From NCBI GenBank assembly GCA_049299895.1, contig JBAQYF010000019.1:71709-135708 (forward strand): a stretch of 64,000 bases of DNA, given 5' to 3'. Shown here one piece after another: positions 20,838 through 64,000 of this stretch (position 1 is its first letter; each line of letters starts with the position of its first letter). This stretch comes from Candidatus Altiarchaeia archaeon (lineage in GTDB: Archaea > Altiarchaeota > Altiarchaeia > IMC4 > QMZM01). A program made the position numbers and the translations under genes. Under the pieces are notes generated by a model. The model worked only from the letters and a program-made list of their open reading frames with translations, did not search any database and was not told the origin of the DNA.

Positions 20838-20843
20838 TTTTAT

Positions 20844-46703: not shown

Positions 46704-47432
46704 TTACGTCTTTATCATGAATCTCACCGCCAGAAACGGCTCCATATTCTGGTGCGGCACTCCTTCCCCGGTGTTGTTGATCTCTATGCTGTAGTCGGAC
46801 ATGTTGAGATCCGGGGGCGGAGCAGCATATAGATTTGTCCGGGTTATTTTGCCCGGGACTGCACCTGTCGGATCGGCGGTAGTTCCGGTATCAGACCCAA
46901 CCAACCAGGCATCGTGCTTGTGGACAGGCATCTGTTCCAGGGTTATGTTAATTGTCTCGTTTCCGCCCCTGGAGCCCTGGGCTCGGTTGATAAGCCCGTC
47001 TCCCTGGCCTTTTCCGATGGGCACCCTGCTACGCATGTCAGGCAACTTGAAAGTAGTGGCACCGTTTCCCCCATACAGGATGCCGATATAAAAATATAAG
47101 GCAGGATAATCCACTATGTTCAGCTCCTGGCCCTCGCACGCAAGCCACCCGGAAGGCACGGTATCCCCGGCAAACATCCTGATCTCCCCGGTATAGACCG
47201 ACGGCCAGCTTGTCCGGCAATCCCCTGCCAGGCATATCCCCGGGGAGGATAACCTGCTGCCCGCGCCTGATATATTTATGTCCCCAGCAAGGCTGACACC
47301 GCCGGACGCATTGACCCCTCCGTTTTTTATTATGACGCTACCGCTCTGGGCCATGAGCATCGCGGAAATCATAAACACTGCGACTACGGACGCAATTTCC
47401 AAACCTCCTGAAGCCTTAAAATTGAATTCCAC
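46704..47432 (-). CDS. Phage tail collar domain protein (MdpB / COG4675-like), paralog 3 of 3, N-terminal TM or signal
   Basis: GEIRMFAGDTVPSGWLACEGQELNIVDYPALYFYIGILYGGNGATTFKLPDMRSRVPIGKGQGDGL...GGNETINITLEQMPVHKHDA matches the tail-collar (PF07484) consensus almost position by position. Confidence 0.7.
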   Translation of the reverse strand: MEFNFKASGGLEIASVVAVFMISAMLMAQSGSVIIKNGGVNASGGVSLAGDINISGAGSRLSSPGICLAGDCRTSWPSVYTGEIRMFAGDTVPSGWLACEGQELNIVDYPALYFYIGILYGGNGATTFKLPDMRSRVPIGKGQGDGLINRAQGSRGGNETINITLEQMPVHKHDAWLVGSDTGTTADPTGAVPGKITRTNLYAAPPPDLNMSDYSIEINNTGEGVPHQNMEPFLAVRFMIKT

Positions 47433-47435
47433 TTT

Positions 47436-48173
47436 TTAAGTTTTTATGATATACGCGATCACCAAGTATGGTTGCATGTTCTCGTGCGAATACCCACTTC
47501 CGGCATTTAGTGTTTCAATAGAACCGTTGGCCATGGATAAGGAGCCCTCCAAGAGAGAATACCGATTGCGGCTGGGATCTATTCCAAAAACATTCCCGCT
47601 TGGAGTACTCGAATCCCCGTTCCCCGCAGCATAAGCCTTCAGCATCCCGGTGTGAGTGTGAAGCGGCATCTGGCTTAAGGTCAAGTTCTCCGACTCGTTG
47701 CCCCCCATCTCGCCAAGGCTTCTATCGGTCAGCCCGTCTCCCTGACCTCCCCCAATAGGAGATCTACCCCTCAGGTCGGGCAGCTTGAAAGTAGTATCAC
47801 CGTCTCCGCCGTATGCGATCCCGATCACGGCGTACAATGCAGGGTAGTCAGCGATGTTCAGCTCCTGGCCCTCGCACGCAAGCCACCCGGAAGGCACATT
47901 ATTCCGTGCAAACATCCTTACTTCTCCAGTTAGGCCCCCGGACCAGGTTGTCCTGCATGTCCCGGCGATGCACAGCTCGGGCGCATATACCTTTGACCCC
48001 GACCCGTAAACGTTTATGTCTCCGGCCGTCTCAATGCTGTCTGAAAGCAACACCTGCCCGTCGCGCACTGTAAAGTTCCCGCTGCAAATCAATGCAGATA
48101 CGAGACAGAACAATAAGACAAATGGAACGATATGCATTTTCTTCAACTTACGCGATTTGTTTTTCAATTTCAC
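47436..48173 (-). CDS. Phage tail collar domain protein (MdpB-like), paralog 2
   Basis: GEVRMFARNNVPSGWLACEGQELNIADYPALYAVIGIAYGGDGDTTFKLPDLRGRSPIGGGQGDGL...NESENLTLSQMPLHTHT. Confidence 0.7.
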   Translation of the reverse strand: MKLKNKSRKLKKMHIVPFVLLFCLVSALICSGNFTVRDGQVLLSDSIETAGDINVYGSGSKVYAPELCIAGTCRTTWSGGLTGEVRMFARNNVPSGWLACEGQELNIADYPALYAVIGIAYGGDGDTTFKLPDLRGRSPIGGGQGDGLTDRSLGEMGGNESENLTLSQMPLHTHTGMLKAYAAGNGDSSTPSGNVFGIDPSRNRYSLLEGSLSMANGSIETLNAGSGYSHENMQPYLVIAYIIKT

Positions 48174-48908
48174 TCAGGTTTTGATCATGTAATTCAATAC
48201 GACATAAGGTTTCATATTATTATGAGGCAGCCCCCCTCCAACAGCAGAAATGTTGGCTCCGGTTGAGGACATGTTTACAAGAACGGTCGTGTTGCTGCTG
48301 TAGCGGAGTGCTCCACCCTGGCTTCCTGGCACGTTCCCGCCAGGGTTATCTCTGTTGGAGGTGCTACTACCGATTGAATGGGCGCTGTGATTATGCACAG
48401 GCAGGTTGACTGCCGAGAGGGTCACGCTCTCGTTCCCTCCGGAAACGCCAAGATCCCACTCCGTCAGACCCTCGCCCTGTCCGGCCGCTATCGGCGCCCT
48501 GCCCCGGAAGTCCGGTATCTTGAACGACGACACGCCGTCTCCGCCATACGTTGTACCTATCACGACAAAGAGATCCGGGTAAGCGGAGGGATCAAGCGAC
48601 GTTCCGTTGCAAAAGAGCCATCCCACAGGCTCATTAGATCCCGCATATAGACGTATCTCGCCAGTGTTGGCCCCGGACGAATCCCAAGCAGTCGTGCAGC
48701 TTCCCGCCAGGCATACCTTCGACGCATATATCTTTGCGCCCGCGCCGGACAAGTTGAGCAAGGAATTTGCCTCTATGCCTCCGGACACGTTAAGGGTTCC
48801 GTTGCGCAGATTAACCTCCCAACTCTGAACGAGATATGATACCAATATCCCTGATGCCGCAGCGAGCAGCAAGTAATATTTCAGCCTGCTTTGACGGAAT
48901 TTACTCAT
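48174..48908 (-). CDS. Phage tail collar domain protein (MdpB-like), paralog 1
   Basis: GEIRLYAGSNEPVGWLFCNGTSLDPSAYPDLFVVIGTTYGGDGVSSFKIPDFRGRAPIAAGQGEGL...NESVTLSAVNLPVHNHSAH. Confidence 0.7.
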   Translation of the reverse strand: MSKFRQSRLKYYLLLAAASGILVSYLVQSWEVNLRNGTLNVSGGIEANSLLNLSGAGAKIYASKVCLAGSCTTAWDSSGANTGEIRLYAGSNEPVGWLFCNGTSLDPSAYPDLFVVIGTTYGGDGVSSFKIPDFRGRAPIAAGQGEGLTEWDLGVSGGNESVTLSAVNLPVHNHSAHSIGSSTSNRDNPGGNVPGSQGGALRYSSNTTVLVNMSSTGANISAVGGGLPHNNMKPYVVLNYMIKT

Positions 48909-48947
48909 TTTCTAAGTAGATAATAATTATATGGGAGTCAATAAATT

Positions 48948-50987
48948 TCATAATAGGGTGTTCGACGCAAGCTTGCCCCGCATGCAAAGGCTGCCCGCCG
49001 AATCGATATAAGCCATATTCGTTCCTGCGCTGTTTTGCACCACAAAAGAGCCCTCCCCGGGATACGAGCAATCCAGATCGTAGTCGCTGCAAGTCGTATC
49101 CTGTATGCAGAGGTTGCCCCATTCGTCTATATATGACACGGTCGCATCGCTGCTGTTTTGCACCAGGAACGTCCCGTCCGGCGGAGCACTGCACGACCCG
49201 CCCGCGATGCAGGATCCAGTCAAACGGATCTCTCCAGCATCGCTAAATGATGCAACCTTGTCGCCCGAACTGTTACGAACATAGAAATACGTAATCTGCG
49301 AACCATCGTCCAAAACCGCCAAAACAGTTACAGTATTATTGCACGAACCGCTAACGCCAAAGGGGATGACAATAGCCCAATACTCTTTCCTGGCTGACGC
49401 AACGCCTTCAGACGTTTCAATGCCTTCAACGCCCAGATCGAAGGCAGACTCATTTACATAACCCGTCGACAGTTTCTTTGCAGACATGCTATCATAGTTT
49501 CCCGGGAATACGCCGTAACTGATATTCCCCGCGCCGATCACACCCGCCCCGGAACATGACATGTCCGCGTTGGCGGCAACCTGTATGTCGATCATTACGT
49601 TCCCCATGTTCGTGATATTGGTGCTGTTGGCAGAACTGCTATTCTGCCCAGGACTCATAGAACCAAAACTTACGCTATCCTCCAAGACCGACAAAGCGAC
49701 CAATTGATCGACGATACTATCCCCTGCAGAAGAATTTGAATTATCAATTGAATCACTGGCAGAAACATTACAGGTCCAGGTCCCGTTCAAAGCCTCATGA
49801 TGCAAAGTGAACGCACAGGATACGTTCCGTTCATTTCCGCTCTCGCTTGTAAAAGAGCAGCTTGAATTAGTATAATGAACGTTGTAATCGTCCGGGTCTG
49901 GCGAGGAAACGGTCTGGTGATAAAGGGTCGCGTCGGCAGAAACGATATCCTGGTACCCATTGACGTCCGTGACCGAAGCGTTGCACAAGACAATGGTATC
50001 GTCTGCCACAGACAGGCCGATATTCCCGCCGTCAGAATCGGAAAGAGAGACTCCGTCAACCACGGGAGCCTCGTTAGACCCTGACAGGTTGAAAGGATAG
50101 CTTGCATTCATCGCCCCGCCGTCGTCGCTTACAAGCACGTTGCCCTCGTTGTCGCACAATTCCGCGTAGGCCCTGTACTCCCCTGCGGGATTGTCGGAAG
50201 TATTCCATGCGCCGGAATTCCACCACACCTGATCAAGCGCAAGCCCGGAGCCTGCCGTAATGATCCTCGGGGAAGAGTCGTTGACTATCGTAGCCTCGTC
50301 GATCCACGCCCCCTGTTCATTCTTCTTTTGCACGACCATGCGCAGGTATGCAAGTATGGAAGTAGACCCGGAGTTGTTCACCTCGGATTTGTCCACGCCG
50401 AAATAAGAGGACCCGGATAACATGAGGCCGCCGGTATTATTGACGTATACGTTCACAGTCCATATCTCCTTGTATTCGTCCCCGTAGGGGATAGTGTAAT
50501 TGTATTCGTAGGTCAATCCGCTGGAAATAGACCCTGCGGGAGTCATCGAGGCGTTGTTCACTGCCGCGGTCCCACCCTTCAGGAGAAGCGTGATCACTGC
50601 CGAATCGAGGCTGGATGCTCCGCCGATGTCGGTCGCGTTGACCCGTATCCTTATATCCTGCCCCTGGGTGAAAGAGGCAGATGCGCCCAGGGAGGAATCG
50701 TATGTCAGGGGCGAGGAGACAGTCATCTGTATGTCGGCTATGGTAATGACCCTTACCTCGCTTACTTCATACGTCCCGGCGGAGGAACAATTAACCCACC
50801 AATAATAGTCTCCCAGATCAAGGGACTCGTTTATGGTCAGGGACTGCTCCGTATTATTCGCTATCTCGCAGGAATCGCAGGCAAAGGCCGGACCTGAAAG
50901 CAGAAAGACGCAGAGACAAACGTAAATGGAACAAACGATTCCATGCGCTCGCATCGTGCGCCCAATCTTCTTTCTATTCGCTTTCAT
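48948..50987 (-). CDS. Large secreted/surface protein, about 680 aa, rich in N-glycosylation sequons and Cys, no recognised domain
   Basis: Likely start MKANRKK with a signal peptide (IVCSIYVCLCVFLLSGPAFA). Many N-x-S/T sequons. Cys-rich C-terminal region. Confidence 0.5.
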   Translation of the reverse strand: MKANRKKIGRTMRAHGIVCSIYVCLCVFLLSGPAFACDSCEIANNTEQSLTINESLDLGDYYWWVNCSSAGTYEVSEVRVITIADIQMTVSSPLTYDSSLGASASFTQGQDIRIRVNATDIGGASSLDSAVITLLLKGGTAAVNNASMTPAGSISSGLTYEYNYTIPYGDEYKEIWTVNVYVNNTGGLMLSGSSYFGVDKSEVNNSGSTSILAYLRMVVQKKNEQGAWIDEATIVNDSSPRIITAGSGLALDQVWWNSGAWNTSDNPAGEYRAYAELCDNEGNVLVSDDGGAMNASYPFNLSGSNEAPVVDGVSLSDSDGGNIGLSVADDTIVLCNASVTDVNGYQDIVSADATLYHQTVSSPDPDDYNVHYTNSSCSFTSESGNERNVSCAFTLHHEALNGTWTCNVSASDSIDNSNSSAGDSIVDQLVALSVLEDSVSFGSMSPGQNSSSANSTNITNMGNVMIDIQVAANADMSCSGAGVIGAGNISYGVFPGNYDSMSAKKLSTGYVNESAFDLGVEGIETSEGVASARKEYWAIVIPFGVSGSCNNTVTVLAVLDDGSQITYFYVRNSSGDKVASFSDAGEIRLTGSCIAGGSCSAPPDGTFLVQNSSDATVSYIDEWGNLCIQDTTCSDYDLDCSYPGEGSFVVQNSAGTNMAYIDSAGSLCMRGKLASNTLL

Positions 50988-51021
50988 AGACCATCTTCGC
51001 ATGATAAATGGATAAAGTAGC

Positions 51022-52923
51022 TCAGCTGACACTGCCAAACCTGACGCAGTTGATATAGTAGGCAGAAGTCTTAGTCCTGCTATATGAGTCGGTTGGGTAT
51101 TGAACAGTCTTCATTGTAGCATAATTCGTATCAACCCCATCATTCGACCAAGTCTGGTAGTAAGACCCTGAGACCCCGAAACAAGTCCTGGCAGCGGAAT
51201 CACATATGTTGGTATTAGCGAACAAAATATTGTAAGGTATTATCGCCGGAAGAGTCCAGTCATTCCACCCTGCATAAGACAACGTATCGCAGTAGTTGCA
51301 TGCAGGATAACTGCTGCCTTGATTGTCGCACGTACCCATGCTTGTTCCCGTAGGGCCCCAGGTATAAGTCGATGCGGAACCCGGGGTCCAGCACTTGTCT
51401 GGCTGGCCTGAATAAGTCGTGCATTGCAGGTAAACAGTCTGCCCCTGGATACTCAGGACGGAGTAGCTGTTGTCGCCTGAACCGCACGTACAGTCCTCGC
51501 ATCCGGCATCGGACGCGTCAGAGTATCCGTCGCAGTCGTTGTCTAAGCCGTCCCCGCAGTTCCCGTTCGCGATGGTCTCCGCAGTGTTGTATCCGCCGCA
51601 GGAACACGAACAGTCGCTGCATGAATCGCAGTTGTAATCCGTATTGCAGCTACCTGCACCGTTACATGTATGCTGGCAGTTGCTGGTCCCGGCGCAATGC
51701 CATGTACCGTCGCACGCACCGGAGTTGCACGAACCGGACGAACAATACGTATTGGAACCGCAGTTGGCGGTCGCATCGTTAGCATCGCAAGCACCTGCAC
51801 CATCGCAATAACCGTCGCCTCCCTGCTGGACGCAGACGCTGGAACAGGCAGTATAACTGGCAGTGCACTGGGTGAAAAGATCTTCATTATCCGCCTGATT
51901 CGCACAACTGCCGCTGGAACACTTCTTGCAGGTTCCGCTGCATGTACTGGAACCCTCGGTATCCTGGGTATTATCCGTTATGCTCACAGGATCAAAAGAA
52001 CTGCCGGAACAACGCTTACAGGAAGGCTGAGAGTCCTCGCCAGCAGACAAGTAGGCGCAGGCATAACCTGAACCGCTGCATGTGTCCGCCCTGCACGAAT
52101 TAGCAGCAGGCGCACCAGCAGTAGAACACTGACTCCACAGATCCTGAGCAGCAGTCTGATAAGTGCACGCCCCGCCAAAACAACGATAACATGTACCGGT
52201 AGAAGAATTACAAATATTAGAACCCTCGGAATCAGCACTATTATCCGCAACACTCACAGGATCAAAAGAACTGCCGGAACAACGCTTACAGGAAGGCTGG
52301 GACTGCTCGCCCGAAGAGAGATATGAGCACGCACCTGAGCCGTCGCATGTCTCCGCCTTGCACGAATCGGCCGACGGAGGAGCAGCAGTTGTGCACTGGC
52401 TGAACAGATCCTGGCCCGCTTCCTCGTTCTGGCAGGATGATCCGTTGACGCATCCCTTGCAGGTAGAACACGCCGCGCCCGAACCATAACACCCGCTGCC
52501 GGCGGTGCACCCGGCATAGGGATGACTGGCGTCATAGCAATAAGCGGCGCAATTTGTTCCGCTGCCGGAGCACCCGAAAGGATCCTGGCATTCTGAAGAG
52601 GTATACGTAGAATTATAGCATGCCAGCGAGCAGTCGGTTACAGTATGATTGCAGCTCCCGGTCATGTTGCAGGAATACAGGCTGTACAGCGAAGCGCTGC
52701 ACCTGCCGAGAAACAGCGTGCAGTTATAACAGGGCTCGGATCCCGAAACCATGAAATTAAAAGTGGGACTACGGCTGCCGGAGGTGGCGTTTTCAGGAGA
52801 AACAAGGTTTACCGAAAACAGCGTCTGCGCATAAACGAATAACATAAGGGCAAGCGCAAGTATGAAAGAGGACAATACCGCATATCCTACGATCCGTCTC
52901 CCGTTTTCTCCTTTTGTTTCCAT
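51022..52923 (-). CDS. Cys-rich secreted protein with internal approximately 90-aa tandem repeats, MopE-like CxDGxDNDCDG metal-binding motif and DUF1566 (Lcl C-terminal)-like end
   Basis: N-terminal TM or signal. Repeats ...SQCTTAAPPSADSCKAETCDGSGACSYLSSGEQSQPSCKRCSGSSFDPVS... occur at least twice. NGNCGDGLDNDCDGYSDASDAGC is present. The C-terminal ...WNDWTLPAI...YYINCVRFG resembles DUF1566. Confidence 0.5.
   Translation of the reverse strand: METKGENGRRIVGYAVLSSFILALALMLFVYAQTLFSVNLVSPENATSGSRSPTFNFMVSGSEPCYNCTLFLGRCSASLYSLYSCNMTGSCNHTVTDCSLACYNSTYTSSECQDPFGCSGSGTNCAAYCYDASHPYAGCTAGSGCYGSGAACSTCKGCVNGSSCQNEEAGQDLFSQCTTAAPPSADSCKAETCDGSGACSYLSSGEQSQPSCKRCSGSSFDPVSVADNSADSEGSNICNSSTGTCYRCFGGACTYQTAAQDLWSQCSTAGAPAANSCRADTCSGSGYACAYLSAGEDSQPSCKRCSGSSFDPVSITDNTQDTEGSSTCSGTCKKCSSGSCANQADNEDLFTQCTASYTACSSVCVQQGGDGYCDGAGACDANDATANCGSNTYCSSGSCNSGACDGTWHCAGTSNCQHTCNGAGSCNTDYNCDSCSDCSCSCGGYNTAETIANGNCGDGLDNDCDGYSDASDAGCEDCTCGSGDNSYSVLSIQGQTVYLQCTTYSGQPDKCWTPGSASTYTWGPTGTSMGTCDNQGSSYPACNYCDTLSYAGWNDWTLPAIIPYNILFANTNICDSAARTCFGVSGSYYQTWSNDGVDTNYATMKTVQYPTDSYSRTKTSAYYINCVRFGSVS
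51981..52300. repeat. Intragenic tandem duplication, about 270-bp period. The 44-bp segment ACAGGATCAAAAGAACTGCCGGAACAACGCTTACAGGAAGGCTG is identical at about 51983 and about 52254.
   Basis: Direct comparison of the two segments. They correspond to the protein-level repeat of the Cys-rich gene. Confidence 0.7.
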
Positions 52924-52971
52924 TATTTTTTTCGTTGGTTTACAAATCCCGGCATGCTTGGATCAATGCGA

Positions 52972-55900
52972 TCAAACGCCTGCCGGAGGATCCGTGAGAT
53001 TCACTATCTCATTTGGCCCGTATGAATCTTTTTTGGTTGCGACCGTCAGGGAAACGTTCGCTTTGACGCTGAATGAACCGTTAGTCCAATTAATATTATT
53101 TGCAGAGTCATTAACATAAATCGTGTAATTATAAGTCCCCCATTTCCAGGTTCCAGTATAGTTGTATTGCCATAGGTCCGAGACATTAGTCATCGAGTAA
53201 TTGGTCTCCAAGCCTCCAGGAGGCGTTATGCCTATCCAGACCGTGCTTATCCCGAATGACGAAGATGCAGAAGCATTTATGGAAACGTTGTAGCCGTAGC
53301 CTAACGGATCCGGCCCGTCGACGACGTCTGTTATATTCGGATTAAGCCAATCAGATGATACGCTCAGGTTATAATCGTCCGAGCGCCCGCTGTGCCCCTC
53401 AGAATCCGAGCAGTTAACAGACCAGTTATAAATTCCGTCAGGCAGGAATAAATTGAAATACTGATCCGTGTTTTTTGTTACCAACGTGTTTGTTTGGCCG
53501 ACTACATCATTTAGCAAAAGATCGCAGAAAACGATATCATAGCCCCCGCTCACGTTGTAGGTGAAATTCACAGTCCTTGATTCAGTCCATTCAGAGTTAT
53601 TGGCCGGCGCGATTAAAGACACATAAGGCGGCGAGCGAGCAATCGTAAGATACCTTGAGTTCGAAGAATCAGTATAATTCGAGTTTCCTGCAGAGTCGTT
53701 GGCCCAGCCGTAATACGAATAAGTCCCGCTTGACAGGTTCGTAACATTGACATAGAACAGATAAGTAGAGCTATTGTACTTCTGGAATTCAGACCGGTAC
53801 TGAAACCAAATTTCCCGGGAGGACAAAGTACGATTATATAACCTAACCTCGTCGATAGATCCGTTGAAATCGAAATAAAGAGGATACGCGAAGGACATAA
53901 CGCCAACGGCAAATCTATCCCCCTGGGCAGCCCGGTAAACAATCGGACCGGTTAGGACCGAACTAGTCTCGTTGACGCCGTTTAGATATAACTGCGCTCC
54001 GCTGGATGAATTATAAGTCAAAGCCACGTAATACCAAACATCGGTTGTGACCGAGGAAACAGATTGAATATTTATCTCATTCGAATTGTTAAGATCATCC
54101 AGATTAATCGACACCCATATCTTGTTATTGAGCGAATACACATTGTAGCCCGACCCCCAATTATTCCTGCCCCGGCTAAGGATAAACTGAGTACCGGAAA
54201 CCATATTAAACTTGACCCACGCCGAAACCGTGAGATAATCGCTTGGAGCCAAAACCGAAGAATTACCAAACAACACATAATCGTTATCCCCGTCAAAACT
54301 CAAAGCCGAACCAAACCTCCCGGAAGAATTCCAAACAGCATCCAGGACAGTACCGTTATTCCCATACCGGGAAACATCCACAGCAAAAGTAGAATTCTCA
54401 CCGATCGCCGAATTATTATTGAAATTCATATCCAATACGAGCGAGTTATCGTATATCGAATAATTCGAGCCATTCCAATTGAATTTGAAGAAATCAAGAT
54501 TCTGCTCGGTGATCGATATATTGACCTGCGTCGAATTAACGGTAATCGTCGACCCGTTCCCGGCAGTCGGGAAAGAGAAGTTAAGGGCAGGAGCAATCGT
54601 GTCCGCCGAAACGGTCAGATACCTTGGACTCGCCGCAGTATACGTGTTCGTATAATTCGAATTCCCTGACGTGTCGTTCGCCCAGCCGTAGTATGTGTAC
54701 GTGCCGGAGGATAGATTAGTCAGGTTCGCGTAGAACCGGTACTGTGTCGAATTGTATTTCATAAACTCCGACTGGTAGTGCATCCAGACCTCCTGCGCGG
54801 ACAGCGAGCGGTTGTACACGCGGACCTCGTCGATGGAGCCGTTCCAGTACCAGTTCGTCCATTTGTTCGCACCTATCTCCAGAGGAGCTGCAGACGAAAA
54901 ATCGCCAATGCTGCCCGAGGCGCTATTAGCCAAAACACCATTTATATAAAGACGTATAGTATTGGAGCCGTTATAGACCCCCGTCAAATGAACCCATCTA
55001 TTCGTAGCCGAAGAATCTAACTTCTCAGCATATAAATAGACGCCCCCGTGGTAAGTAAGAAAACGCCACTGCAAAGAATCCCTTTTATAATACAAACTAA
55101 AATAGCCAGTTGAAACACCCTTGCTAACAATACCCAAATGAGCACTACCCGAAACATCCACAAGATAAACCCAAGCCTCCACCGTAAAAGCAGTAGCGTT
55201 CGAAAAATTAACAGAAGGATTATGAGAAACATTAAAATAAACAGCAGACCGATTATACTTAAAAGCACCACCAAACCGCCCAGACGCATTCCACACAGGA
55301 CAAGAAGACAAAAAACAAGAAGCATTATTACCATATCCGGAAGAATCAACCACATAAGACGAATTATCACCCAAAACAGAATTATTATTGAAATTCAACG
55401 CCAAAACAAGCGAATCATCATAGAAGGTATAATTCGTACCGTTCCAGTTGAACTTGAAGGAATCAAGGTTCTGCTCTTCTATCGAAATATTCACCTGGGT
55501 CCAGTTGACGGTGATCGTTGATCCGTTCCCGGCGGTCGGGGAGGAAAAATTTAGGGCAGGCGCCATTGTGTCTGGTTCAATCAATGAAATGGTCAGATAC
55601 CTCGGGCTCGACGCATTATACCCATTCGTATAATTGGAATTCCCGGCGGAGTCGTTGGCCCAGCCGTAATACGAATAACTCCCGCTTGAAAGGTTCGACA
55701 GGTTGGCGTAGAAACGATAAGTCGTCGAATTGTACTTCGCAAACTCCGCCTGATAATGCATCCAGACCTCCTGCGCGGACAACGCACGATCATACACGCG
55801 GACCTCGTCGATCATCGACTTCGTATCGCTCTGAGCGATGTGAACATACGCTGACATAAAGCCAGGCCAGCCGTCAACATACGAACCGACCAAAACGCCA

Positions 55901-58900
55901 TCCCGATAACTGACCCTGGACCCGGAAACATTGGAGAAAACAACCGCATAATGATGGAATCCTTCCTCCAGAACGATAGAAGGAGAATCAAAATAAGAAC
56001 CCTCCACGCGCGCCACAGGCATAACCATCGACACACCGCTGTCGTTATAATACTCAAAAGTAATACGACTAGACCCATCCATGTCAAAATTCAAATAATC
56101 ACCCCAATCAACAGAAGAATCATCATCCCTCAACCAAAACTCAAAAGTAGACGAAGAAGTATTAATACCGACAACACAACTCACACCGTCATCACTGTCC
56201 AAAAACTGATAAGCACCGCCAAACCTACCAGAAGAATTCCACACAGCCCCACCAGACACATCACAAACAAAACCATTACCAGAAACATCCAAAACCAGAG
56301 TCGAATTCTCCCCGATAGCTGAATTGTTGTTGAAATTCAAAGCCAACACAAGCGAATCATCATAGAGAGAATAATTCGATCCGTTCCAGTCGAACATGAA
56401 CGAATCAAGATTAGGCTCGTCAATGGAAATATTCACCCGAGTCCAATTGACACTGATCGTCGAACCGTTCCCGGCGGTGGGATCTTCAAACGATAACACG
56501 GGAGCGGTACTGTCTGCTTCTATTGTGAATCCGTCGGCCGCGGATAGGTTGTCGTATCCTGTGTTGTGGTCGACGCAGCTTATGTTGTAATAGTAGGTGC
56601 CGCCCGACGCAAAAGACCTATTGTATTCGTAGACGCCGGAAGATGCGTTATAAGACATGTTCACGGCCTCGCTCCAGGACCCGGAGCTGTTCTCTGAATA
56701 CTCGCAGTATATACCCGTGCCATTTACAGGATCCCCCGAAGTGCCATTCGTATAGTTGGCATAGAAGAGCACCTGCTCCCCAGCATACTTGCTCTCAAGG
56801 TCGGTGTCATCCCATATAGTAAGGTTGCTGTTATAGCCCATGCCGCCGGCATAAGCCGTGAATGACGCCACAGTAAACCAGAAATGAGTCCCATTCTCCC
56901 CGTAGGAGTAATCGCCGGTTGAATTCTTCTCCCATGAACCACAGACCCCGGAGGAATAATTCCAATCCGTGCAGTGATAGATATAATCGATCCTGAAACT
57001 CTTAGGGAGGGTGATGAGCGCGTTCTGCATACTGAACTGCGTAGTATCCAACGCAACTATCGTCGAGATGTTACGGGCATCAGAAGGAAGACCCCCCTCA
57101 AGGGATGCGAACTGCGGGCCCACTGATACATTACCCAAAGTAAGATTCACACCACGCAAGACCATGCTCCCGATCCCGGACGAAATGTTAATATCATATA
57201 GGTCGTAGAGCGCAGCATACCTGCTAATCCTCGAATCAGCCAGAGAAAAGTTCTTTGACTCCAAAAGATAACCATTCCGATCAAAAACATCGGCAGAAGA
57301 ATCCAGAACACCCAGCGAAGAATTATACGCAGTCACGTTCAAGAACGCAGTCGAAGGATCCACAAATAAATCAGCGTGAGTAGAAGAACTCATGTTCTCC
57401 GAATAATTAGAGACATACACACACCAGTGTATGTCCGACTCAGAAGAAAGAACAGTCCTGGAAAGATACGAACCAATACCCCTACGCTCAATATCCCCGG
57501 GATAAGTATGAACAGAAATCTCACCCCCATCCACAGAACAAGACATACCAGTATTCTTCACCTTAACAGTCAGATTAGCCGCATCAACCCAACCAAAATC
57601 ATCCTCAACTGATATGTTCAATACAGCAGCATCCCCCGCCATATAACGCGAATTACCGCGCAGATTAATAGCATCAAGATCCGTACGCACCCGAACCAAA
57701 CGGAAGATAATAGAGGAATTCCCTTGAGCAGCAGAGTAATTAACGCCCGCATCCGAATAATTGACCGAGAGATTATAATAACCAGGCGCATAAACAGTCT
57801 TATCAAATGACAGGCCACAATGACCCGATGAATTGGTCGCGTTCATGCCCAGGTATGAGCCGTTCAGATAGAACGAACAATTCGCAAGGACACCCACAGA
57901 GGAATTATAAAACAGGTAGACTCTGCCCTGCACAGTCAAATTATTACCAACTATGCCCAACACATCCTCATGAGGAAGAGAACTGGTATAATTACCCCGG
58001 AAAACACTTCCACCATTAACCGGACTGATCAAATCCGCACACGCATACCAAGACACATTCACAGACAAAGAAACGTTGTTGTTCGATTCGCCGGACTCCG
58101 CAAAGGAGCCATCCGAGTCAACCGCCCAGAGGAACGAATGACTGCCTCCTGAAGCAGTCCAGTTAAAAACGATCACATGAGACGCATTTCTCGCAATATC
58201 CACCACGACCGATGAATTCAGGACCGAATCCACATAGAAAGACAAATTCAAACCGGACACATTCACAACGTCATTATTATGAACCGTCAGATTAAAACTC
58301 ACATTATCAAACTCCCCGGCAGAAACAGGAACATAAGAGAGGTCACTGACATTCACCGAGAAATCAAAGGCATTACCCGCAACCAGAACATCGTAGGCGG
58401 AAGTGAAATTAACGTTACCCGCAGCATCCTGCACGTAGGCAGTATAATTATAATAACCGTCAGAGAGGTTTGTGAAATTCCGATACAACCGGTTTAGACC
58501 TGCGTTGTATGAGGCATTGATCTCCTCGGGGGAGAGTGCGCGATTCCAGATGCGCACTTCGTCGATGGAACCGTTGAATTGCTCCCCGCTTCTCCCGCCG
58601 ATCCTGAAAGACGACGCCGGCCAGTCGAAGCTCTTATAAGCGCAAGAAGACACACTGGTGCCGTTAAGATATATCGAGATATTTGTAGAGTTGGACGTTA
58701 CCGTCACATAATTCCAGGAATTGCAGGGCATGGGGCTAAATGAACATATAGAAGTATAAGTACCATTGATGAATGCACCCACATAAAAAAGGCTCACGTT
58801 ATTCATTCTAATACTGGGTTTATGGTCTGCTCCTTCAAAGATGTTTCTTGTAGAATCGCCTGCAGACCGTGGATTCAGCCAGGCAGAAAAAGACCAGTCT

Positions 58901-61900
58901 GAGTCATTAAAAACACCGTCAAATGCAGGGGAATAAGGAACGGAAATAAAATCATCCAAGCCGTCAAAAACATATGCTCCTCCAAATTTACCTGAAGAAA
59001 CAAACAGGGGGCATGAATTATCAGAGCAAGTACCATTGTTCCCATAACTGCTCCAGTCCCGGACAAACGTAGAATTCTCCCCTGCCTCATTATTGAACCT
59101 CCACCACCCGACAAGCGACCGGTTAAAATCAATGAACGCCGTCCCCGCGGGGGATGAGCCGTTCACCGACACGTTCACATACAACGAGTTCACGTTCGTC
59201 GACGCATTAGATAACAGCGTCGGCGAAGCAAAGCCGATAAGAGGATATATCGTATCAACAGCCAAAGTCCTCGCGCCTGTTTCGCTGATGTTTCCTGCCG
59301 AATCGTTCGCCCAGCCGTAATATATATACGTGCCGGACGACAGATTCGTCAGATTCGCATAGAACCTGTACTCGGATGTATTGTATTTTGAGAATTCTGA
59401 TTGATAATGGAGCCATATCTCCTGCGGGGAGAGGGAACGATTATAGATGCGGACTACGTCGATGGATCCGTTAAAAGGAAATCCGTCGCCTCTCTTGCCT
59501 ACATAAAGACTCTGATAAGATTTAGTCAGGCCATGTGCGAGAGTCTTGTTGTTTTCCAGCCGGCCATCGAGATAAACATCAGCTTCAAGAGTTGAATTCA
59601 CGTAGGTGAAGGCGACATGATGCCAGGACGTATCCACACTGGTCGATCCCGTGACGGCATCATCGTTAATACCATAGTTGATATATCCTTTCAAAACATC
59701 GTTTACCACGCAGAAACCGTATGAAGCAGTATATGCTTTATCGACCATGCAGTGAACCGTTCCTGTTGAAGACCTCTTGATCCACGCCTCAATGGTCAAG
59801 GCTTCCAGGATGTCCAGGCTGGACGCGTTCCCGCAGCTGGCATAGTCCAGCAGGCCGTTGAATGTATAAGCTCCGGAATACTTGCCATTGAGGGTATATA
59901 GCGGCCGCCCATAGGTCGTCCAACCGGAATTATGCGTGTCTCCGTACGCGGCTGACTTGTCTGAGAAACCGATCAGCATTCCGTTGTTTCCTGCCCCGGA
60001 GAGGTCTGATGCAAGGCTTCCTGATGCGTTGACAAAAGGGATATAAAGGACGAGACCGGTTTCGTTGCTGTAATTGCCCAAATACTGCTGGTACGCCTCT
60101 TCTCCGGAAACCGACCGGTTATATACTCGTACCTCGTCTACAGAGCCGTTAAATAACCTGTTAGGGGAGATAGCAGAATGAGTCCCAATGCTCAGGGGGA
60201 TCTCGTTTATTGAAGCATTGATCGTCTGAAGCGCGTCATCCTTCAGCGCGCCGTCTACGTACAGCATGACATGAGTCCCATTCCACGTGCCCAGAATATG
60301 ATACCAGCGATTGGTGCTATATACGTCGCCTGTATTTGTCGAAATCTGTCCGACGCTATTGGCTATGACAAACCAGAAATTACCGACAGAATCACTAGTA
60401 GAAGTCGTCGAAATAGTGTAACTGGAGTTCTTGAAAAAATCGTCAAATGATTTGCCCACCATGCTGGCCCCGTATTTGAATGCCCTCACATAGACCCATG
60501 CAGAGACCGTCCCTGTGGAAGACAAATGAAGGGACTCGCTATCCGAGACATTGACCCAGTCATTGCTTCCGTCAAACTTGAGGGCAGACCCTCTCACAGT
60601 ACAGTTATTCCCGTATGGAGAGACATCATTTGCGCCTGTGGAATTCTCCCCGATCGCAGAATTATTGTCGAAGTTTAACGCCAGCACAAGAGAATCATCG
60701 TATATCGAATAATTCGTCCCGTTCCAGTTGAATTTGAACGTATCAAGGTTCTGCTCGTCTATCGAGATATTCACCTGCGTCCAGTCTCTGTTGATAGTCG
60801 TCCCGTTCTCCCCGGTCGGGGACGAAAAATTCAGGAACGGCGCCGTCGTATCCGCCGCTGCAAAAGAAACCGTCAAATATCTTGGACTTGTCGCAGTGTA
60901 CGTATTCGTGTAGGCGGAATTACCTATCGTGTCATTGGCCCAGCCGTAGTAACTGTATGTGCCGTCAACAAGGCCTGTAACATTCGAGTAGAACTGCCAC
61001 TGCGTAGCGTCGTACTTTTTCAGGGTGGAAAGATAATGGACTTTTATTTCCTGAACGGATAGAGAGCGGTTGTATATTCTTACGTCGTCTATGCTCCCGT
61101 TGAAATACCTGGAACCGCAGCTATATCCTATTTTCAGGGAGTTGTTTGTTTCTTTCAGGGGGCCTAGGGCGGCAGTGCAGTTCTTGGTAAGCACCCCGTT
61201 AAGATAATGATAAACCTGGGTTCCGCTCCTCTGAACGACGAAATTCTGCCAAACCTCGCTCGTGAGCTGCGTTGAACTGTTACTTGCTTCATTGCAATAA
61301 CCGGTTACGCCGATAAGTAATGAAAAAGTGAACGCATTGGTAATGGCTCCATCCTGCTGGATGGTAAATCCTTCAAGATGGCAGTTATGCCTGTCCAAGA
61401 GGCCGGCATAAGTAGCTGATTGGTTTGCCCCGGGCTTAACCCACATTGAAATGGTCATGTCATTGACCGCAGAATCCAGACTGGCCGAATCGTTCACAGA
61501 GGCATAATCATCGAAGCCATTAAACCTCATCCCAAATCCCTCTTTACCGGGGTAAGTCCATAAAGGCCTGCCGTAAGTAGTCCATCCGCTTGCAGAGGTG
61601 TCGCCTGCTCCTGCGGTTGTGTTGGCATAGTTCGTGAGGTTCCCGTGGTTGTTCATTCCGGACTTGTCTGAGGCGTTCGTGCCGGAGGCGTCTGAGAACG
61701 GGAGGTATAGAACAAGTCCCGTATCGTTGCTGTAGACGCCTTTGTATTGTTCGACGATCTCCGCTGCTGTCAGTGCGCGATTGTAGATGCGCACGTCGTC
61801 GATGGAGCCGTTGTAGTATCCAACGTTCTCCTTGCTTTTTCCGATATACAGCGTCGATGCCCCGGTGGAAAGCGCGTGAGGAGCGGATATGTCAGGCGTG

Positions 61901-64000
61901 GTGTTGCCGTTGATATAAACATTCAGGATCGAACCATTGTATGTTACCGCCACATAATTCCACTCATTTCTTATTATCGTATTGGTATTCCCGGCAGTAT
62001 CATCGGCATAAGCCCCCCAGTAGAGCCCTTCGTCAGCCTCGGAATAGTCATAAAGCAGGTTGAACATCTGGCTTGTTGCCGTCGCCCCGAACGAAAACAT
62101 ATCCTGCCTTCCCTGCTTTCCGGAAGGCTTGAACCATAAAGTCACTGTCCTCGCCTGAGAGCCGGTGATGCCGACATTGCCAACCGTATCGATATAATCG
62201 TCCAAGCCGTCAAACTTCAGCGCAGAACCCCTTATGGTCCCGTTGTTCTTGTAGCTTGAATATTCATAAGACACATTTCCCGTGCCTTCATTCATCGGAA
62301 GAGCCAAAACCAGATCAGAGTAATTGCCGCTGTATACCGGCGTTGAATTGCCGGCGCTTCCAAAGAAAGTATAATTCGTGCCGTTCCAGTTGAAAATAAA
62401 AGTGTCCAGATTACTCCCATTTATCGAGATATTCACCTGCGACGAATTCACGTTAATGATCGAGCCGTTTCCTGCAGTCGGAGCAGAGAAATTAAGCGCC
62501 ATAGCGACAGAATCGATCGTAATATATCTTGTATCGGTCATTCCCGTCCCTGCTGCCGTGTCATTGACCCAGCCGTAGTAACTGTATGTGCCGTCAACAA
62601 GGCCTGTAACATTCGAGTAGAACTGCCACTGGGTCGAATTATACCTGGCAAGGCTTGAAGAGTATTGGAATCGTATTTCTTCTGTGGTAAGAGAACGGTT
62701 ATAGACGCGGACATCGTCGATAAGACCGTTATAGCAGGCGGTTTTTGCCAAATTGCATCCGACTGCATACTGAGTGGGAGCAATGTTTGTAACCATCGTC
62801 TTGTTGCCCACAGAAATCCCGTTCTCATACAGAGTGTACATTGAACCGTCGTAGGTTGTTGAAACAAACAGCCACTGGCCTTCGACCGGGATATTGCCAA
62901 CTAAAGCATCGCCATACTGGCTCACATAAAGGTTTTTATTCCCAGACAATAAGCCTATGTGGAATGAACTAGAAAAAGAATCAACTCCATCATTATACAT
63001 TATATGATAGGAGTCTGTTGTTATGACCCCCGGCTTAGTCCAAAAACTGACTGTGCGAGACTGGTTCCCGCCCGGAAAAGCAGAATTATTTCCAGAGACA
63101 TAATCGTCATAACCGTTGAAACTAGCACCGTAAGAGTACTTCCCCCGGTTAGTCCACATGGGACGGCCGTACGTAGTCCAGCCTGAGCCGGAGTTGTCTC
63201 CTGCGCCGGCAGAGGTGTCGGCAAAGCTTGTTAAGGTGCCGTGATTGTTTTGGCCCGACTTGTCTGAGGCGTTCGTTCCAGAAAGATCGGAGAATGGGAT
63301 GTACAGCACAAGCCCGGTATTGTTGCTGAATATCCCGTTATAATGTTCAGCTATCTCAGTTGCGCCAAGAGACCGGTTATAAATGCGAAACTCGTCGATG
63401 GTGCCGTTGAATGCTCTTCCGGCGCCATACCCCCTGCCGATCATGTAGTTTAATCCGGTATTCGGCGTAACGGGGGTAGTGCATGAATCGGTTATGTTGG
63501 GCACTCCGTTCAGGTATATAGTACATGCGCTGGAATTTTTGACGACCGTCAAGTATTGCCACAAATCTGAGCTAAGATGTAGTTTGTTCGACGTTGCAGG
63601 CACCCATGCGGTTCCGTTTCCATAGGCAAAGGAATAGTTATTTAGATTGGTTGAATCCTGCTGGAATACTATCCCCAGATAACTTCCACCGTGGTTTCCA
63701 AAAATGTCCGCATATTGAACCTGCGCAGAACCAGGCTTCACCCACAGTCCTATTGAGAAATTGTCCGTTAACAGAGGAAAGTACGTACCGGTATTAACAT
63801 AATCATCGCTCCCATCAAACTTCAACGCGGAACCCCTTGTAATCCCGCTGTTTCCATAGAAAGAATAATCATAAGACGTGTTTCCCGTTCCTTCATTCAT
63901 CGGAAGAGCCAAAACCAGATCAGAGTAATTGCCGCTATAAGTCGGACTTGCATTACCGGCAGACCCGAGGAACGTATAATTCGTCCCGTCCCAGTTGAAC
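52972..64000 (-). CDS. Giant surface protein, at least 3646 aa, built from Ig-like plus LamG (concanavalin-A-like lectin, Laminin_G_3) repeat units. The 5' end lies beyond the right edge of the window.
   Basis: At least 12 copies of the LamG_3 hallmark ...NGSIDEVR(I/V)YNR(A/S)LS..EI...Y. Repeated SDLVLALPMNEGTGN and DDSLVLALNFNNNSAIGENS modules. The listed start at 63912 is a TTG read as M. Translation continues in frame (...DLVLALPMNEG) to position 64000 with no stop, so the gene is partial. Sequon density is extreme. Confidence 0.8.
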   Translation of the reverse strand, partial: FNWDGTNYTFLGSAGNASPTYSGNYSDLVLALPMNEGTGNTSYDYSFYGNSGITRGSALKFDGSDDYVNTGTYFPLLTDNFSIGLWVKPGSAQVQYADIFGNHGGSYLGIVFQQDSTNLNNYSFAYGNGTAWVPATSNKLHLSSDLWQYLTVVKNSSACTIYLNGVPNITDSCTTPVTPNTGLNYMIGRGYGAGRAFNGTIDEFRIYNRSLGATEIAEHYNGIFSNNTGLVLYIPFSDLSGTNASDKSGQNNHGTLTSFADTSAGAGDNSGSGWTTYGRPMWTNRGKYSYGASFNGYDDYVSGNNSAFPGGNQSRTVSFWTKPGVITTDSYHIMYNDGVDSFSSSFHIGLLSGNKNLYVSQYGDALVGNIPVEGQWLFVSTTYDGSMYTLYENGISVGNKTMVTNIAPTQYAVGCNLAKTACYNGLIDDVRVYNRSLTTEEIRFQYSSSLARYNSTQWQFYSNVTGLVDGTYSYYGWVNDTAAGTGMTDTRYITIDSVAMALNFSAPTAGNGSIINVNSSQVNISINGSNLDTFIFNWNGTNYTFFGSAGNSTPVYSGNYSDLVLALPMNEGTGNVSYEYSSYKNNGTIRGSALKFDGLDDYIDTVGNVGITGSQARTVTLWFKPSGKQGRQDMFSFGATATSQMFNLLYDYSEADEGLYWGAYADDTAGNTNTIIRNEWNYVAVTYNGSILNVYINGNTTPDISAPHALSTGASTLYIGKSKENVGYYNGSIDDVRIYNRALTAAEIVEQYKGVYSNDTGLVLYLPFSDASGTNASDKSGMNNHGNLTNYANTTAGAGDTSASGWTTYGRPLWTYPGKEGFGMRFNGFDDYASVNDSASLDSAVNDMTISMWVKPGANQSATYAGLLDRHNCHLEGFTIQQDGAITNAFTFSLLIGVTGYCNEASNSSTQLTSEVWQNFVVQRSGTQVYHYLNGVLTKNCTAALGPLKETNNSLKIGYSCGSRYFNGSIDDVRIYNRSLSVQEIKVHYLSTLKKYDATQWQFYSNVTGLVDGTYSYYGWANDTIGNSAYTNTYTATSPRYLTVSFAAADTTAPFLNFSSPTGENGTTINRDWTQVNISIDEQNLDTFKFNWNGTNYSIYDDSLVLALNFDNNSAIGENSTGANDVSPYGNNCTVRGSALKFDGSNDWVNVSDSESLHLSSTGTVSAWVYVRAFKYGASMVGKSFDDFFKNSSYTISTTSTSDSVGNFWFVIANSVGQISTNTGDVYSTNRWYHILGTWNGTHVMLYVDGALKDDALQTINASINEIPLSIGTHSAISPNRLFNGSVDEVRVYNRSVSGEEAYQQYLGNYSNETGLVLYIPFVNASGSLASDLSGAGNNGMLIGFSDKSAAYGDTHNSGWTTYGRPLYTLNGKYSGAYTFNGLLDYASCGNASSLDILEALTIEAWIKRSSTGTVHCMVDKAYTASYGFCVVNDVLKGYINYGINDDAVTGSTSVDTSWHHVAFTYVNSTLEADVYLDGRLENNKTLAHGLTKSYQSLYVGKRGDGFPFNGSIDVVRIYNRSLSPQEIWLHYQSEFSKYNTSEYRFYANLTNLSSGTYIYYGWANDSAGNISETGARTLAVDTIYPLIGFASPTLLSNASTNVNSLYVNVSVNGSSPAGTAFIDFNRSLVGWWRFNNEAGENSTFVRDWSSYGNNGTCSDNSCPLFVSSGKFGGAYVFDGLDDFISVPYSPAFDGVFNDSDWSFSAWLNPRSAGDSTRNIFEGADHKPSIRMNNVSLFYVGAFINGTYTSICSFSPMPCNSWNYVTVTSNSTNISIYLNGTSVSSCAYKSFDWPASSFRIGGRSGEQFNGSIDEVRIWNRALSPEEINASYNAGLNRLYRNFTNLSDGYYNYTAYVQDAAGNVNFTSAYDVLVAGNAFDFSVNVSDLSYVPVSAGEFDNVSFNLTVHNNDVVNVSGLNLSFYVDSVLNSSVVVDIARNASHVIVFNWTASGGSHSFLWAVDSDGSFAESGESNNNVSLSVNVSWYACADLISPVNGGSVFRGNYTSSLPHEDVLGIVGNNLTVQGRVYLFYNSSVGVLANCSFYLNGSYLGMNATNSSGHCGLSFDKTVYAPGYYNLSVNYSDAGVNYSAAQGNSSIIFRLVRVRTDLDAINLRGNSRYMAGDAAVLNISVEDDFGWVDAANLTVKVKNTGMSCSVDGGEISVHTYPGDIERRGIGSYLSRTVLSSESDIHWCVYVSNYSENMSSSTHADLFVDPSTAFLNVTAYNSSLGVLDSSADVFDRNGYLLESKNFSLADSRISRYAALYDLYDINISSGIGSMVLRGVNLTLGNVSVGPQFASLEGGLPSDARNISTIVALDTTQFSMQNALITLPKSFRIDYIYHCTDWNYSSGVCGSWEKNSTGDYSYGENGTHFWFTVASFTAYAGGMGYNSNLTIWDDTDLESKYAGEQVLFYANYTNGTSGDPVNGTGIYCEYSENSSGSWSEAVNMSYNASSGVYEYNRSFASGGTYYYNISCVDHNTGYDNLSAADGFTIEADSTAPVLSFEDPTAGNGSTISVNWTRVNISIDEPNLDSFMFDWNGSNYSLYDDSLVLALNFNNNSAIGENSTLVLDVSGNGFVCDVSGGAVWNSSGRFGGAYQFLDSDDGVSCVVGINTSSSTFEFWLRDDDSSVDWGDYLNFDMDGSSRITFEYYNDSGVSMVMPVARVEGSYFDSPSIVLEEGFHHYAVVFSNVSGSRVSYRDGVLVGSYVDGWPGFMSAYVHIAQSDTKSMIDEVRVYDRALSAQEVWMHYQAEFAKYNSTTYRFYANLSNLSSGSYSYYGWANDSAGNSNYTNGYNASSPRYLTISLIEPDTMAPALNFSSPTAGNGSTITVNWTQVNISIEEQNLDSFKFNWNGTNYTFYDDSLVLALNFNNNSVLGDNSSYVVDSSGYGNNASCFLSSCPVWNASGRFGGAFKYNRSAVYFNVSHNPSVNFSNATAFTVEAWVYLVDVSGSAHLGIVSKGVSTGYFSLYYKRDSLQWRFLTYHGGVYLYAEKLDSSATNRWVHLTGVYNGSNTIRLYINGVLANSASGSIGDFSSAAPLEIGANKWTNWYWNGSIDEVRVYNRSLSAQEVWMHYQSEFMKYNSTQYRFYANLTNLSSGTYTYYGWANDTSGNSNYTNTYTAASPRYLTVSADTIAPALNFSFPTAGNGSTITVNSTQVNISITEQNLDFFKFNWNGSNYSIYDNSLVLDMNFNNNSAIGENSTFAVDVSRYGNNGTVLDAVWNSSGRFGSALSFDGDNDYVLFGNSSVLAPSDYLTVSAWVKFNMVSGTQFILSRGRNNWGSGYNVYSLNNKIWVSINLDDLNNSNEINIQSVSSVTTDVWYYVALTYNSSSGAQLYLNGVNETSSVLTGPIVYRAAQGDRFAVGVMSFAYPLYFDFNGSIDEVRLYNRTLSSREIWFQYRSEFQKYNSSTYLFYVNVTNLSSGTYSYYGWANDSAGNSNYTDSSNSRYLTIARSPPYVSLIAPANNSEWTESRTVNFTYNVSGGYDIVFCDLLLNDVVGQTNTLVTKNTDQYFNLFLPDGIYNWSVNCSDSEGHSGRSDDYNLSVSSDWLNPNITDVVDGPDPLGYGYNVSINASASSSFGISTVWIGITPPGGLETNYSMTNVSDLWQYNYTGTWKWGTYNYTIYVNDSANNINWTNGSFSVKANVSLTVATKKDSYGPNEIVNLTDPPAGV
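54400..63950. repeat. Large near-identical intragenic DNA repeats inside the giant LamG gene. Unit is about 0.95 kb in the middle and about 1.6 kb toward the 5' end, with about 80-100% identity between copies.
   Basis: The motif GAATTATTATTGAAATTCA...GTTCCCGGCGGTCGGG recurs at about 54410, 55378, 56320, 60658, 62345 and 63960. A 64-bp exact match CCCAGCCGTAGTAACTGTATGTGCCGTCAACAAGGCCTGTAACATTCGAGTAGAACTGCCACTG lies at 60940-61003 and 62569-62632. Confidence 0.75.

Follow-up and report, generated by a model that had tools for sequence, protein, structure and literature searches.

The DNA analysed here, called the window throughout, is a stretch of 64,000 nucleotides (nt) from a Candidatus Altiarchaeia archaeon (contig JBAQYF010000019.1, positions 71,709 to 135,708), and its end is occupied by a single giant open reading frame (ORF) on the minus strand. 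The frame, with its stop codon at 52972-52974, remains open up to the edge of the window (last complete codon 63997-63999), comprising 3,675 codons, and the giant gene is real. A start at 63912 in the list of ORFs is merely the first start codon within the window; repeat homology runs on to 63999 and thus the true 5´ end of the gene lies outside. An exact 60-nt pattern (63700-63759) searched against genome and metagenome contigs gave no match, and the missing 5´ end was not recovered. The region quite probably represents the final 11 kb, at the 3´ end, of a gene that encodes a cell-surface protein of at least 3,675 amino acids (aa) in an archaeon of the Altiarchaeota. The window also encodes Orc1/Cdc6 and an archaeosine tRNA-guanine transglycosylase (ArcTGT, with TGT, C2 and PUA domains). 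The latter is 87% identical to the copy of Candidatus Altiarchaeales archaeon nzgw1, a metagenome-assembled genome, and the following 15 matches are all from Altiarchaeota. The GC content at third codon positions (GC3) is 0.53 for the giant gene, compared to a range of 0.49-0.70 in the window; this is at the low end but no clear outlier, and we make no claim of horizontal transfer.

On the plus strand, five ORFs of at least 100 aa lie within the giant gene. Four of them occupy the codon-aligned antisense frame, in which stops come solely from the sense codons TTA, CTA and TCA, and none of the five matched a Pfam family. The initial annotation had described these plus-strand ORFs (54064-54669, 55138-55521, 55951-56322 and others) as shadows of the giant gene, with which our data agree.

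Pfam identified Laminin_G_3 (PF13385) in the giant protein with an E value of 1.1e-214 and 704.5 bits (cut-off 27.6) over ten stretches, together with a CARDB domain and, weakly, half of the immunoglobulin (Ig)-like domain Big_13. To map the domains, a unit was aligned with its database homologues (alignment A1), from which local hidden Markov models were derived for the IgN half, the LamG core and the IgC half. The resulting map places the ten LamG domains in seven units, three of the type IgN-LamG-LamG-IgC and four of the type IgN-LamG-IgC (residues are counted from the window edge):

52972..64000, minus strand: giant ORF, 3´ part; uninterrupted translation of at least 3,675 codons plus stop, 5´ end and N-terminus outside the window
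62512..63999, minus strand: unit S1, truncated at the edge of the window; residues 1-496 with IgN tail, LamG1 (28-222), LamG2 (242-448) and IgC (450-496)
60865..62508, minus strand: unit S2; aa 498-1045 with IgN (498-548), LamG3 (562-754), LamG4 (766-991) and IgC (993-1045)
59254..60846, minus strand: unit S3; aa 1052-1582 with IgN, LamG5 (1103-1308), LamG6 (1316-1534) and IgC
58378..59250, minus strand: single-LamG unit; aa 1584-1874 with IgN, LamG7 (1628-1833) and IgC; C-terminal half of Pfam Big_13 at aa 1827-1872
56509..58377, minus strand: non-repetitive central region; aa 1875-2497, with a CARDB-like Ig domain at aa 1886-1977 (Pfam)
55585..56508, minus strand: unit T1; aa 2498-2805 with IgN, LamG8 (2549-2751) and IgC
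54607..55566, minus strand: unit T2; aa 2812-3131 with IgN, LamG9 (2863-3077) and IgC; holds the example peptide of the initial annotation
53638..54597, minus strand: unit T3; aa 3135-3454 with IgN, LamG10 (3186-3403) and IgC
52975..53637, minus strand: C-terminal region; aa 3455-3675, Ig-like by way of two homologues (P0012 and P0017, alignment A1 columns 800-1000)

The order IgN-LamG(-LamG)-IgC is strict, with an IgN opening and an IgC closing every run of units. In homologues that contain a single unit, the IgN directly follows a signal or transmembrane segment, and some of these proteins stop just past the IgC (alignment A1). The AlphaFold2 model of unit T2 reached a predicted local distance difference test score (pLDDT) of 89.6 and a predicted template modelling score (pTM) of 0.89, with the IgN and IgC halves each above 90 in pLDDT. 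In Foldseek searches the LamG part matched lectin-like jelly-roll domains with a probability of 1.00 and E values down to 2e-12; its best matches were receptor-binding domains, and an accessory domain of the glycoside hydrolase family 43 (GH43) arabinanase AbnA was also found. When the LamG part was excised in silico, ten of 17 sequences matched Big_13 (PF19077) at E values of 1 or below, the best at 3.3e-4 and below threshold. One such construct covered Big_13 positions 14-102 of 102, a weak match with an E value of 0.0015 and 19.4 bits (cut-off 27), and the LamG-excised profile weakly spanned one BIg domain of Salmonella SiiE in N- to C-terminal order (E value 0.008). The strict order, the ends of the single-unit homologues, the confident model of unit T2 and the matches to Big_13 and SiiE together suggest that IgN and IgC may be the two halves of one Ig-like sandwich which carries one or two LamG domains in a loop.

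The central region stands apart from the units. Among 5.8 billion proteins these approximately 620 aa have a single detectable homologue (P0121, 40% identity), and weak matches to archaeal CARDB cell-surface proteins were found in the PDB. The unit itself is widespread, since its profile retrieved 59,665 proteins at E values of 1e-30 or lower. The top 150 of these matches are 1.2 to 7.8 thousand aa long and mostly contain several matched stretches (3 to 33), and for many of them the best stretch spans only the LamG part. Named members come from Nanoarchaeota and Woesearchaeota and also from Aenigmarchaeota, Micrarchaeota and Altiarchaeales A3. Unit T2 is 42-49% identical to proteins of Aenigmarchaeota and Altiarchaeales A3, and four giants (P0124, P0132, P0142 and P0136) share a collinear run of three units at 34-39% identity. 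The homologues begin with a hydrophobic N-terminus. In three giants (P0122, P0123 and P0129) this hydrophobic N-terminus starts with R-G-Q-(S/T)-x-x-E-F-L, a motif similar to the type IV pilin-like (class III) signal peptides of archaea, which hints at pilin-like processing of some of these proteins.

The initial annotation had reported repeat units of about 0.95 kb in the middle of the gene and of about 1.6 kb in its 5´ part, both at roughly 80% identity, and had regarded the duplications as recent. The periods are correct: direct repeats are spaced 942-978 nt between 53.6 and 56.6 kb and 1596-1662 nt between 59.2 and 64.0 kb. The 0.95-kb units are however located in the 3´ third of the gene, its middle (56.5-58.4 kb) being non-repetitive, and the identity of whole units is far lower than 80%. 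In codon-aligned comparisons, the 1.6-kb units S1 to S3 are 48-56% identical at the nucleotide and 37-50% at the amino acid level, with a synonymous divergence (dS) from 1.8 to saturated; the 0.95-kb units T1 to T3 reach 52-62% and 42-54%, respectively, with a dS of 0.9-2.6. The closest 1.6-kb pair is S1 and S2 with 56% nucleotide identity and a dS of 1.8, and S3 is 48% identical to either of them with a saturated dS. Identities of 75-84% are reached only in patches of 140-300 nt, namely the IgN and IgC pieces and the start of the LamG domain. In these pieces the nonsynonymous divergence (dN) is 0.07-0.2 and dS is mostly 0.7 to saturated. Such a low dN combined with a high dS is the signature of constraint at the protein level. 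All these pieces are also 56-68% identical to homologues in other archaeal phyla (alignment A2), and their high identity reflects a module that archaeal phyla have conserved and not a recent origin.

The LamG cores within the giant gene are 27-40% identical to one another. LamG5 and LamG7 to LamG10, and hence the cores of all three 0.95-kb units, match a LamG core in a protein of another organism better than any sister unit. Parts of the LamG cores of T1 and T2 gave an apparent dN above dS, in an alignment that is just 11-45% identical there, and these values were left uninterpreted. With unit identities of 48-62%, a dS between 0.9 and saturation and five LamG cores that are closer to other proteins, the duplications are old, contrary to the recent origin initially proposed. 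The same divergence bears on the quality of the assembly: since the units are too different to stem from collapsed or duplicated reads, it is unlikely that the repeats are an assembly artefact.

Two exact direct repeats connect the units S1 and S2:

60939..61002, no strand assigned: S2 copy of the 64-nt exact repeat, in the codons of aa 1000-1021 of the IgC half (k-mer scan)
62568..62631, no strand assigned: S1 copy of the 64-nt exact repeat, in aa 457-478; the two copies are 1629 nt or 543 codons apart
62285..62331, no strand assigned: S2 copy of the 47-nt exact repeat, at the start of LamG3
63890..63936, no strand assigned: S1 copy of the 47-nt exact repeat, at the start of LamG1; the two copies are 1605 nt or 535 codons apart

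The 64-nt pair was already noticed in the initial annotation, with coordinates shifted by one nucleotide (60940-61003 and 62569-62632), so that the last base differs between the two copies as they were given there. Between S1 and S2, 248 aligned positions encode the same degenerate amino acid, and at 52% of these the codons are identical, compared to 38-44% for the remaining pairs of units. The identical codons are clustered: uninterrupted runs of 22 and 14 of them fall on the 64-nt and the 47-nt repeat, and permutation yielded P values of 3.5e-5 for the former and 1e-5 for the latter. Short-tract gene conversion between S1 and S2 is the simplest explanation for these runs, which were found in this one pair of units only. 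Of the ongoing unequal recombination or gene conversion that had been suggested for the whole gene, some conversion is therefore supported. Both spacings are divisible by three; thus, recombination at these repeats would delete or add one unit in frame, and a loss or gain of units via the 64-nt and 47-nt repeats may be possible. Phase variation, which had been proposed as well, found no such backing: the part of the gene inside the window, whose promoter region lies beyond the edge, contains no simple-sequence or homopolymer tracts, and Tandem Repeats Finder returned only a 9-nt match with 2.1 copies. A diversity-generating retroelement was considered and rejected, with mismatches near both tracts spread over all four bases and no reverse transcriptase among the ORFs scanned.

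The giant protein contains 215 N-x-S/T sequons (x not proline) in 3,675 aa or 5.85 per 100 aa, and 57% of its asparagines lie in a sequon. Shuffling of the composition gave expectations of 74.5 +/- 7.1 and 74.6 +/- 7.5; compared to the former, sequons are 2.9-fold enriched (z 19.7). Control motifs were flat, with 0.80-fold for S/T-x-N, 0.92-fold for N-S/T, 0.94-fold for N-x-x-S/T and 1.25-fold for D-x-S/T, showing that the enrichment is specific to the glycosylation motif in spacing and direction. At 7.4 sequons per 100 aa the central region exceeds all other large regions, with the short C-terminal region alone above it (8.4). Unit T2 contains 22 sequons in 329 aa, approximately 13 of which are kept in position in at least 60% of the external homologues, which come from DPANN archaea. 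The 58-aa peptide that had been chosen as an example of high density was found at aa 2817; it contains seven sequons and not about eight. For the 49 other plausible ORFs of the window, including three secreted CARDB proteins, we counted about 0.5 sequons per 100 aa without enrichment, and the giant protein is approximately tenfold above this background. Apart from the giant protein, enrichment was seen solely in proteins encoded by its downstream neighbours.

Among the best 150 representatives of the family the density of sequons is bimodal, with about 50 unenriched proteins and about 85 that are enriched 1.75- to 3.25-fold. Their median is 3.7 per 100 aa, and nine of the 150 reach 5.85, placing the giant gene in the top 6%. 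Judged from these proteins, dense sequons are a trait of the family, in which the giant gene ranks high. AglB-mediated N-glycosylation occurs in nearly all Archaea (PMC11407970). The sequon statistics are best explained by heavy N-glycosylation of the product; it had been predicted in the initial annotation along with the high density, and both are in line with the motif-specific enrichment and the conserved positions of the sites.

Directly downstream of the giant gene six further genes are encoded in the same direction:

45832..52923, minus strand: six co-directional genes, -17 to 53 nt apart, the products of which are secreted or anchored in the membrane

Their products are a 633-aa cysteine-rich protein, a 696-aa sequon-rich protein, three paralogues with a phage-tail-collar domain and a 272-aa protein, and together with the giant gene they probably form one operon-like cluster for surface proteins. 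The 633-aa protein (51022-52923, minus strand) has an N-terminal transmembrane segment, 68 cysteines (10.7%) and a cysteine-rich internal repeat of about 90 aa, with copies at approximately aa 171 and 260. It is not enriched in sequons, a match to the Lcl C-terminal domain was sub-threshold, and a look-up of the exact protein gave no match. No family in Pfam or NCBIfam was found for the secreted 696-aa protein (48948-51038, minus strand), which contains 26 sequons, or 3.7 per 100 aa (z 6), and the gene of which overlaps the upstream gene by 17 nt. The three tandem paralogues (46704-48908, minus strand) are 242-245 aa long, 39-50% identical and each equipped with an N-terminal hydrophobic anchor. 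They match Phage Tail Collar (PF07484) with E values of 5e-24 to 6e-27 and contain 2-3.7 sequons per 100 aa, a mild enrichment (z 2.4-3.6). Elsewhere in the window three secreted CARDB/NPCBM_assoc proteins are encoded (19221-20837, 24178-25749 and 34122-35294, all minus strand), each of which has just two to three sequons and is not enriched; the high density is thus specific to the cluster at 46.7-64 kb and not shared by all exported proteins.

The window is syntenic with the nearest genome, Altiarchaeales nzgw1, in several blocks. Synteny ends at approximately 45820, directly after ArcTGT, and the cluster for surface proteins is missing at the corresponding position of nzgw1 (window 45820-64000 versus 12100-21707 of the nzgw1 locus L002). 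Neither the giant gene nor the genes next to it had a homologue in the nzgw1 locus or in 15 other Altiarchaeota loci around ArcTGT. Relative to L002, the window contains extra blocks at approximately 20.8-31.9 kb and 32.2-40.7 kb. One short-read Logan contig (SRR28062479_8984, L001) encodes ArcTGT, an IMPase and the 272-aa protein at 100% protein identity and stops within the gene for the latter, before the collar and giant genes. In other parts of the window, an ORF for a DDE_Tnp_1 transposase (12291-13214, plus strand) overlaps the gene for an AAA_14/DUF4143 ATPase (12941-14194, minus strand), which has the lowest GC3 of the window (0.49), and this overlap (12291-14194) may be the remnant of a mobile element. 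The Orc1/Cdc6 gene (3124-4203, plus strand) adjoins the stretch with the lowest GC content of the window (39%, 2001-4000), and a replication origin may be located at 2001-4203.

We interpret the giant gene as encoding a giant exported surface glycoprotein, most likely a fibrous multivalent adhesin, and estimate the probability of this interpretation at about 75%. The chain consists of three double-LamG units, one single unit, the CARDB-bearing central region, three further single units and the Ig-like C-terminus. The protein would be translocated across the membrane and subsequently N-glycosylated by AglB at many of the 215 sites, and the glycans would provide the fibre with a stabilising coat. 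Each of the ten LamG cores, diverged as they are, would present a different surface to carbohydrate or glycoprotein ligands on other cells, in the biofilm matrix or on particles, and LamG proteins have indeed been proposed as adhesion factors in DPANN archaea (PMC7414124, PMC9563170). Old duplications and shuffling of modules gave rise to the repeat structure. Purifying selection keeps the Ig halves and their sequons across archaeal phyla, and recent homogenisation by gene conversion is limited to the two short tracts of S1 and S2.

Several points weigh against this interpretation. The N-terminus is located beyond the window and no signal peptide was seen; likewise, a hydropathy scan of the 3,675 aa detected no hydrophobic anchor (maximum 1.24 for any 19 aa). 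For the LamG domains, neither ligands nor binding residues were identified. The matches of the IgN and IgC halves to Ig-like domains stay under the Pfam thresholds, and contact between the two halves is putative. Glycosylation is read from sequence statistics only, and the 64-kb window contains no aglB gene. The other secreted CARDB proteins of the window are not rich in sequons, so that dense glycosylation is not a trait of the exoproteome of this organism as a whole. Finally, the nearest genome lacks the cluster at the syntenic site and thus conservation of the gene within the Altiarchaeota is unproven.

Other explanations have to be weighed against a glycosylated adhesin. The locus might be a contingency locus, in which recent repeats actively expand, contract or switch by unequal recombination and thereby generate length or phase variation. 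The two exact repeats with their in-frame spacings of 1629 and 1605 nt and the significant clustering of identical codons between S1 and S2 would fit such a locus, as would the position of the cluster at a synteny breakpoint. However, units that are only 48-62% identical with a dS of 0.9 to saturated are not what recent repeats would look like, and the LamG cores 5 and 7 to 10 are nearer to proteins of other organisms than to their sisters. The restriction of the conversion tracts to one pair of units, the lack of simple-sequence repeats and the absence of the adenine-specific mismatch pattern of a diversity-generating retroelement point in the same direction, and we consider active variation of this kind unlikely. 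It might also be possible that the protein is a structural component of the envelope, for instance a sheet resembling an S-layer, a sheath or a filament subunit of the hamus type, with glycans serving mainly as a protective coat. The host belongs to the Altiarchaeota, whose known appendage protein is a probably glycosylated beta-sandwich (PMC4460559); the giant protein is all-beta, acidic and dense in sequons, and its gene is part of a co-directional cluster of genes for secreted proteins. Nevertheless, no S-layer or DUF1608-type domain was found with Pfam or NCBIfam, and a hamus subunit of 97 kDa with about seven sites (PMC4460559) is hardly comparable to a protein of at least 400 kDa with 215 sites. 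Ten diverged lectin-fold domains suit binding more than a lattice, and the absence from the syntenic site of the nearest genome would be unexpected for a core envelope protein, leaving such a role quite improbable.

The LamG domains could furthermore be catalytic or accessory modules of an extracellular enzyme that degrades polysaccharides, since their Pfam clan, the concanavalin-A-like glucanase superfamily, contains glucanases. Weak matches to 3keto-disac_hyd and to a Sialidase N-terminal domain and the Foldseek match to the accessory domain of AbnA could be taken in favour of an enzyme. Yet Pfam and NCBIfam revealed no catalytic domain in the 3,675 aa, neither of a glycoside hydrolase nor of a lyase or esterase, and the matches are non-catalytic lectin-like domains, the best structural ones being receptor-binding; an enzyme is highly improbable. 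A more far-reaching version of the adhesin interpretation can be put forward only tentatively, and we would rather doubt than assume it. The building block of thousands of DPANN-type giants might be a previously undescribed module in which one or two LamG domains are inserted into an Ig-like domain, with about a dozen N-glycan sites that are structurally integral and keep their positions from one archaeal phylum to another, and conversion of the S1/S2 type might allow loss or gain of units in the gene described here.

What had initially been observed in this region was largely right, save for the level of identity and the offset of one nucleotide, and its interpretation is only partly supported. 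From its homologues the giant protein is of a known but uncharacterised kind, and similar giants, which reach about 7,800 aa, are abundant. Among the domains of archaeal huge proteins Laminin_G_3 is the most frequent, and no other type of huge protein is as common in archaea as the giant LamG-repeat proteins, with a function that is not understood (PMC11573180). To this, our analysis adds a clean domain map with a strict IgN-LamG(-LamG)-IgC grammar and evidence that dense sequons are a conserved, motif-specific trait of the family. It also provides a worked case in which repeat identity at the DNA level reflects constraint on a scaffold module and not recent duplication. The family of LamG giants is placed in the Altiarchaeota, beside a cluster of genes for secreted proteins at a synteny breakpoint. 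No new kind of biology is opened here, and concrete targets for glycoproteomics and binding studies are supplied.

Several known systems share features with the giant protein. The hamus subunit of Ca. Altiarchaeum hamiconexum comes from the same phylum and is likewise secreted, beta-rich and probably glycosylated (PMC4460559). It is a protein of the S-layer/DUF1608-like fold with the size and the few predicted sites mentioned above; it was compared by description only, and an identity of the giant protein with hamus or S-layer proteins was rejected on the basis of the domain searches. The SiiE-type giant BIg adhesins of Salmonella are beads-on-a-string Ig-like fibres, as proposed for the giant protein, and the LamG-excised profile aligns weakly with them; however, SiiE belongs to another domain of life, contains no nested LamG, is not N-glycosylated and is exported by type I secretion. 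The best structural match of the LamG part is the lectin-like subdomain Hcn of clostridial neurotoxins (E values of 2e-12 to 1e-9, TM-score of about 0.5 over approximately 230 residues), and homologues of the giant protein carry precomputed matches to PF07953. This likeness is at the level of the fold only (13-23% identity), and the translocation, protease and beta-trefoil Hcc parts of the toxins are absent here.

TafC, the minor subunit of haloarchaeal Tat-fimbriae, is also archaeal and has an outward laminin-G-like domain at a presumed adhesive tip (PMC11821415). It comprises about 370 aa and has an N-terminal donor-strand pilin-like domain and a Tat signal, none of which were seen in the giant protein. 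The TafC model (NF052521) was rejected as a family assignment, with 252.7 bits summed over nine stretches (cut-off 410) and a best stretch that covers positions 167-360, the LamG part. Also among the closest systems are the giant LamG-repeat proteins of DPANN archaea (arCOG07813-type, annotated as 'LamG domain-containing protein'). They contain the same IgN-LamG-IgC unit at 34-48% identity and are likewise giant, multi-copy, dense in motif-specific sequons and uncharacterised. In contrast to these, the protein described here is encoded by a member of the Altiarchaeota and combines double- and single-LamG units with a 620-aa central region that has one homologue.

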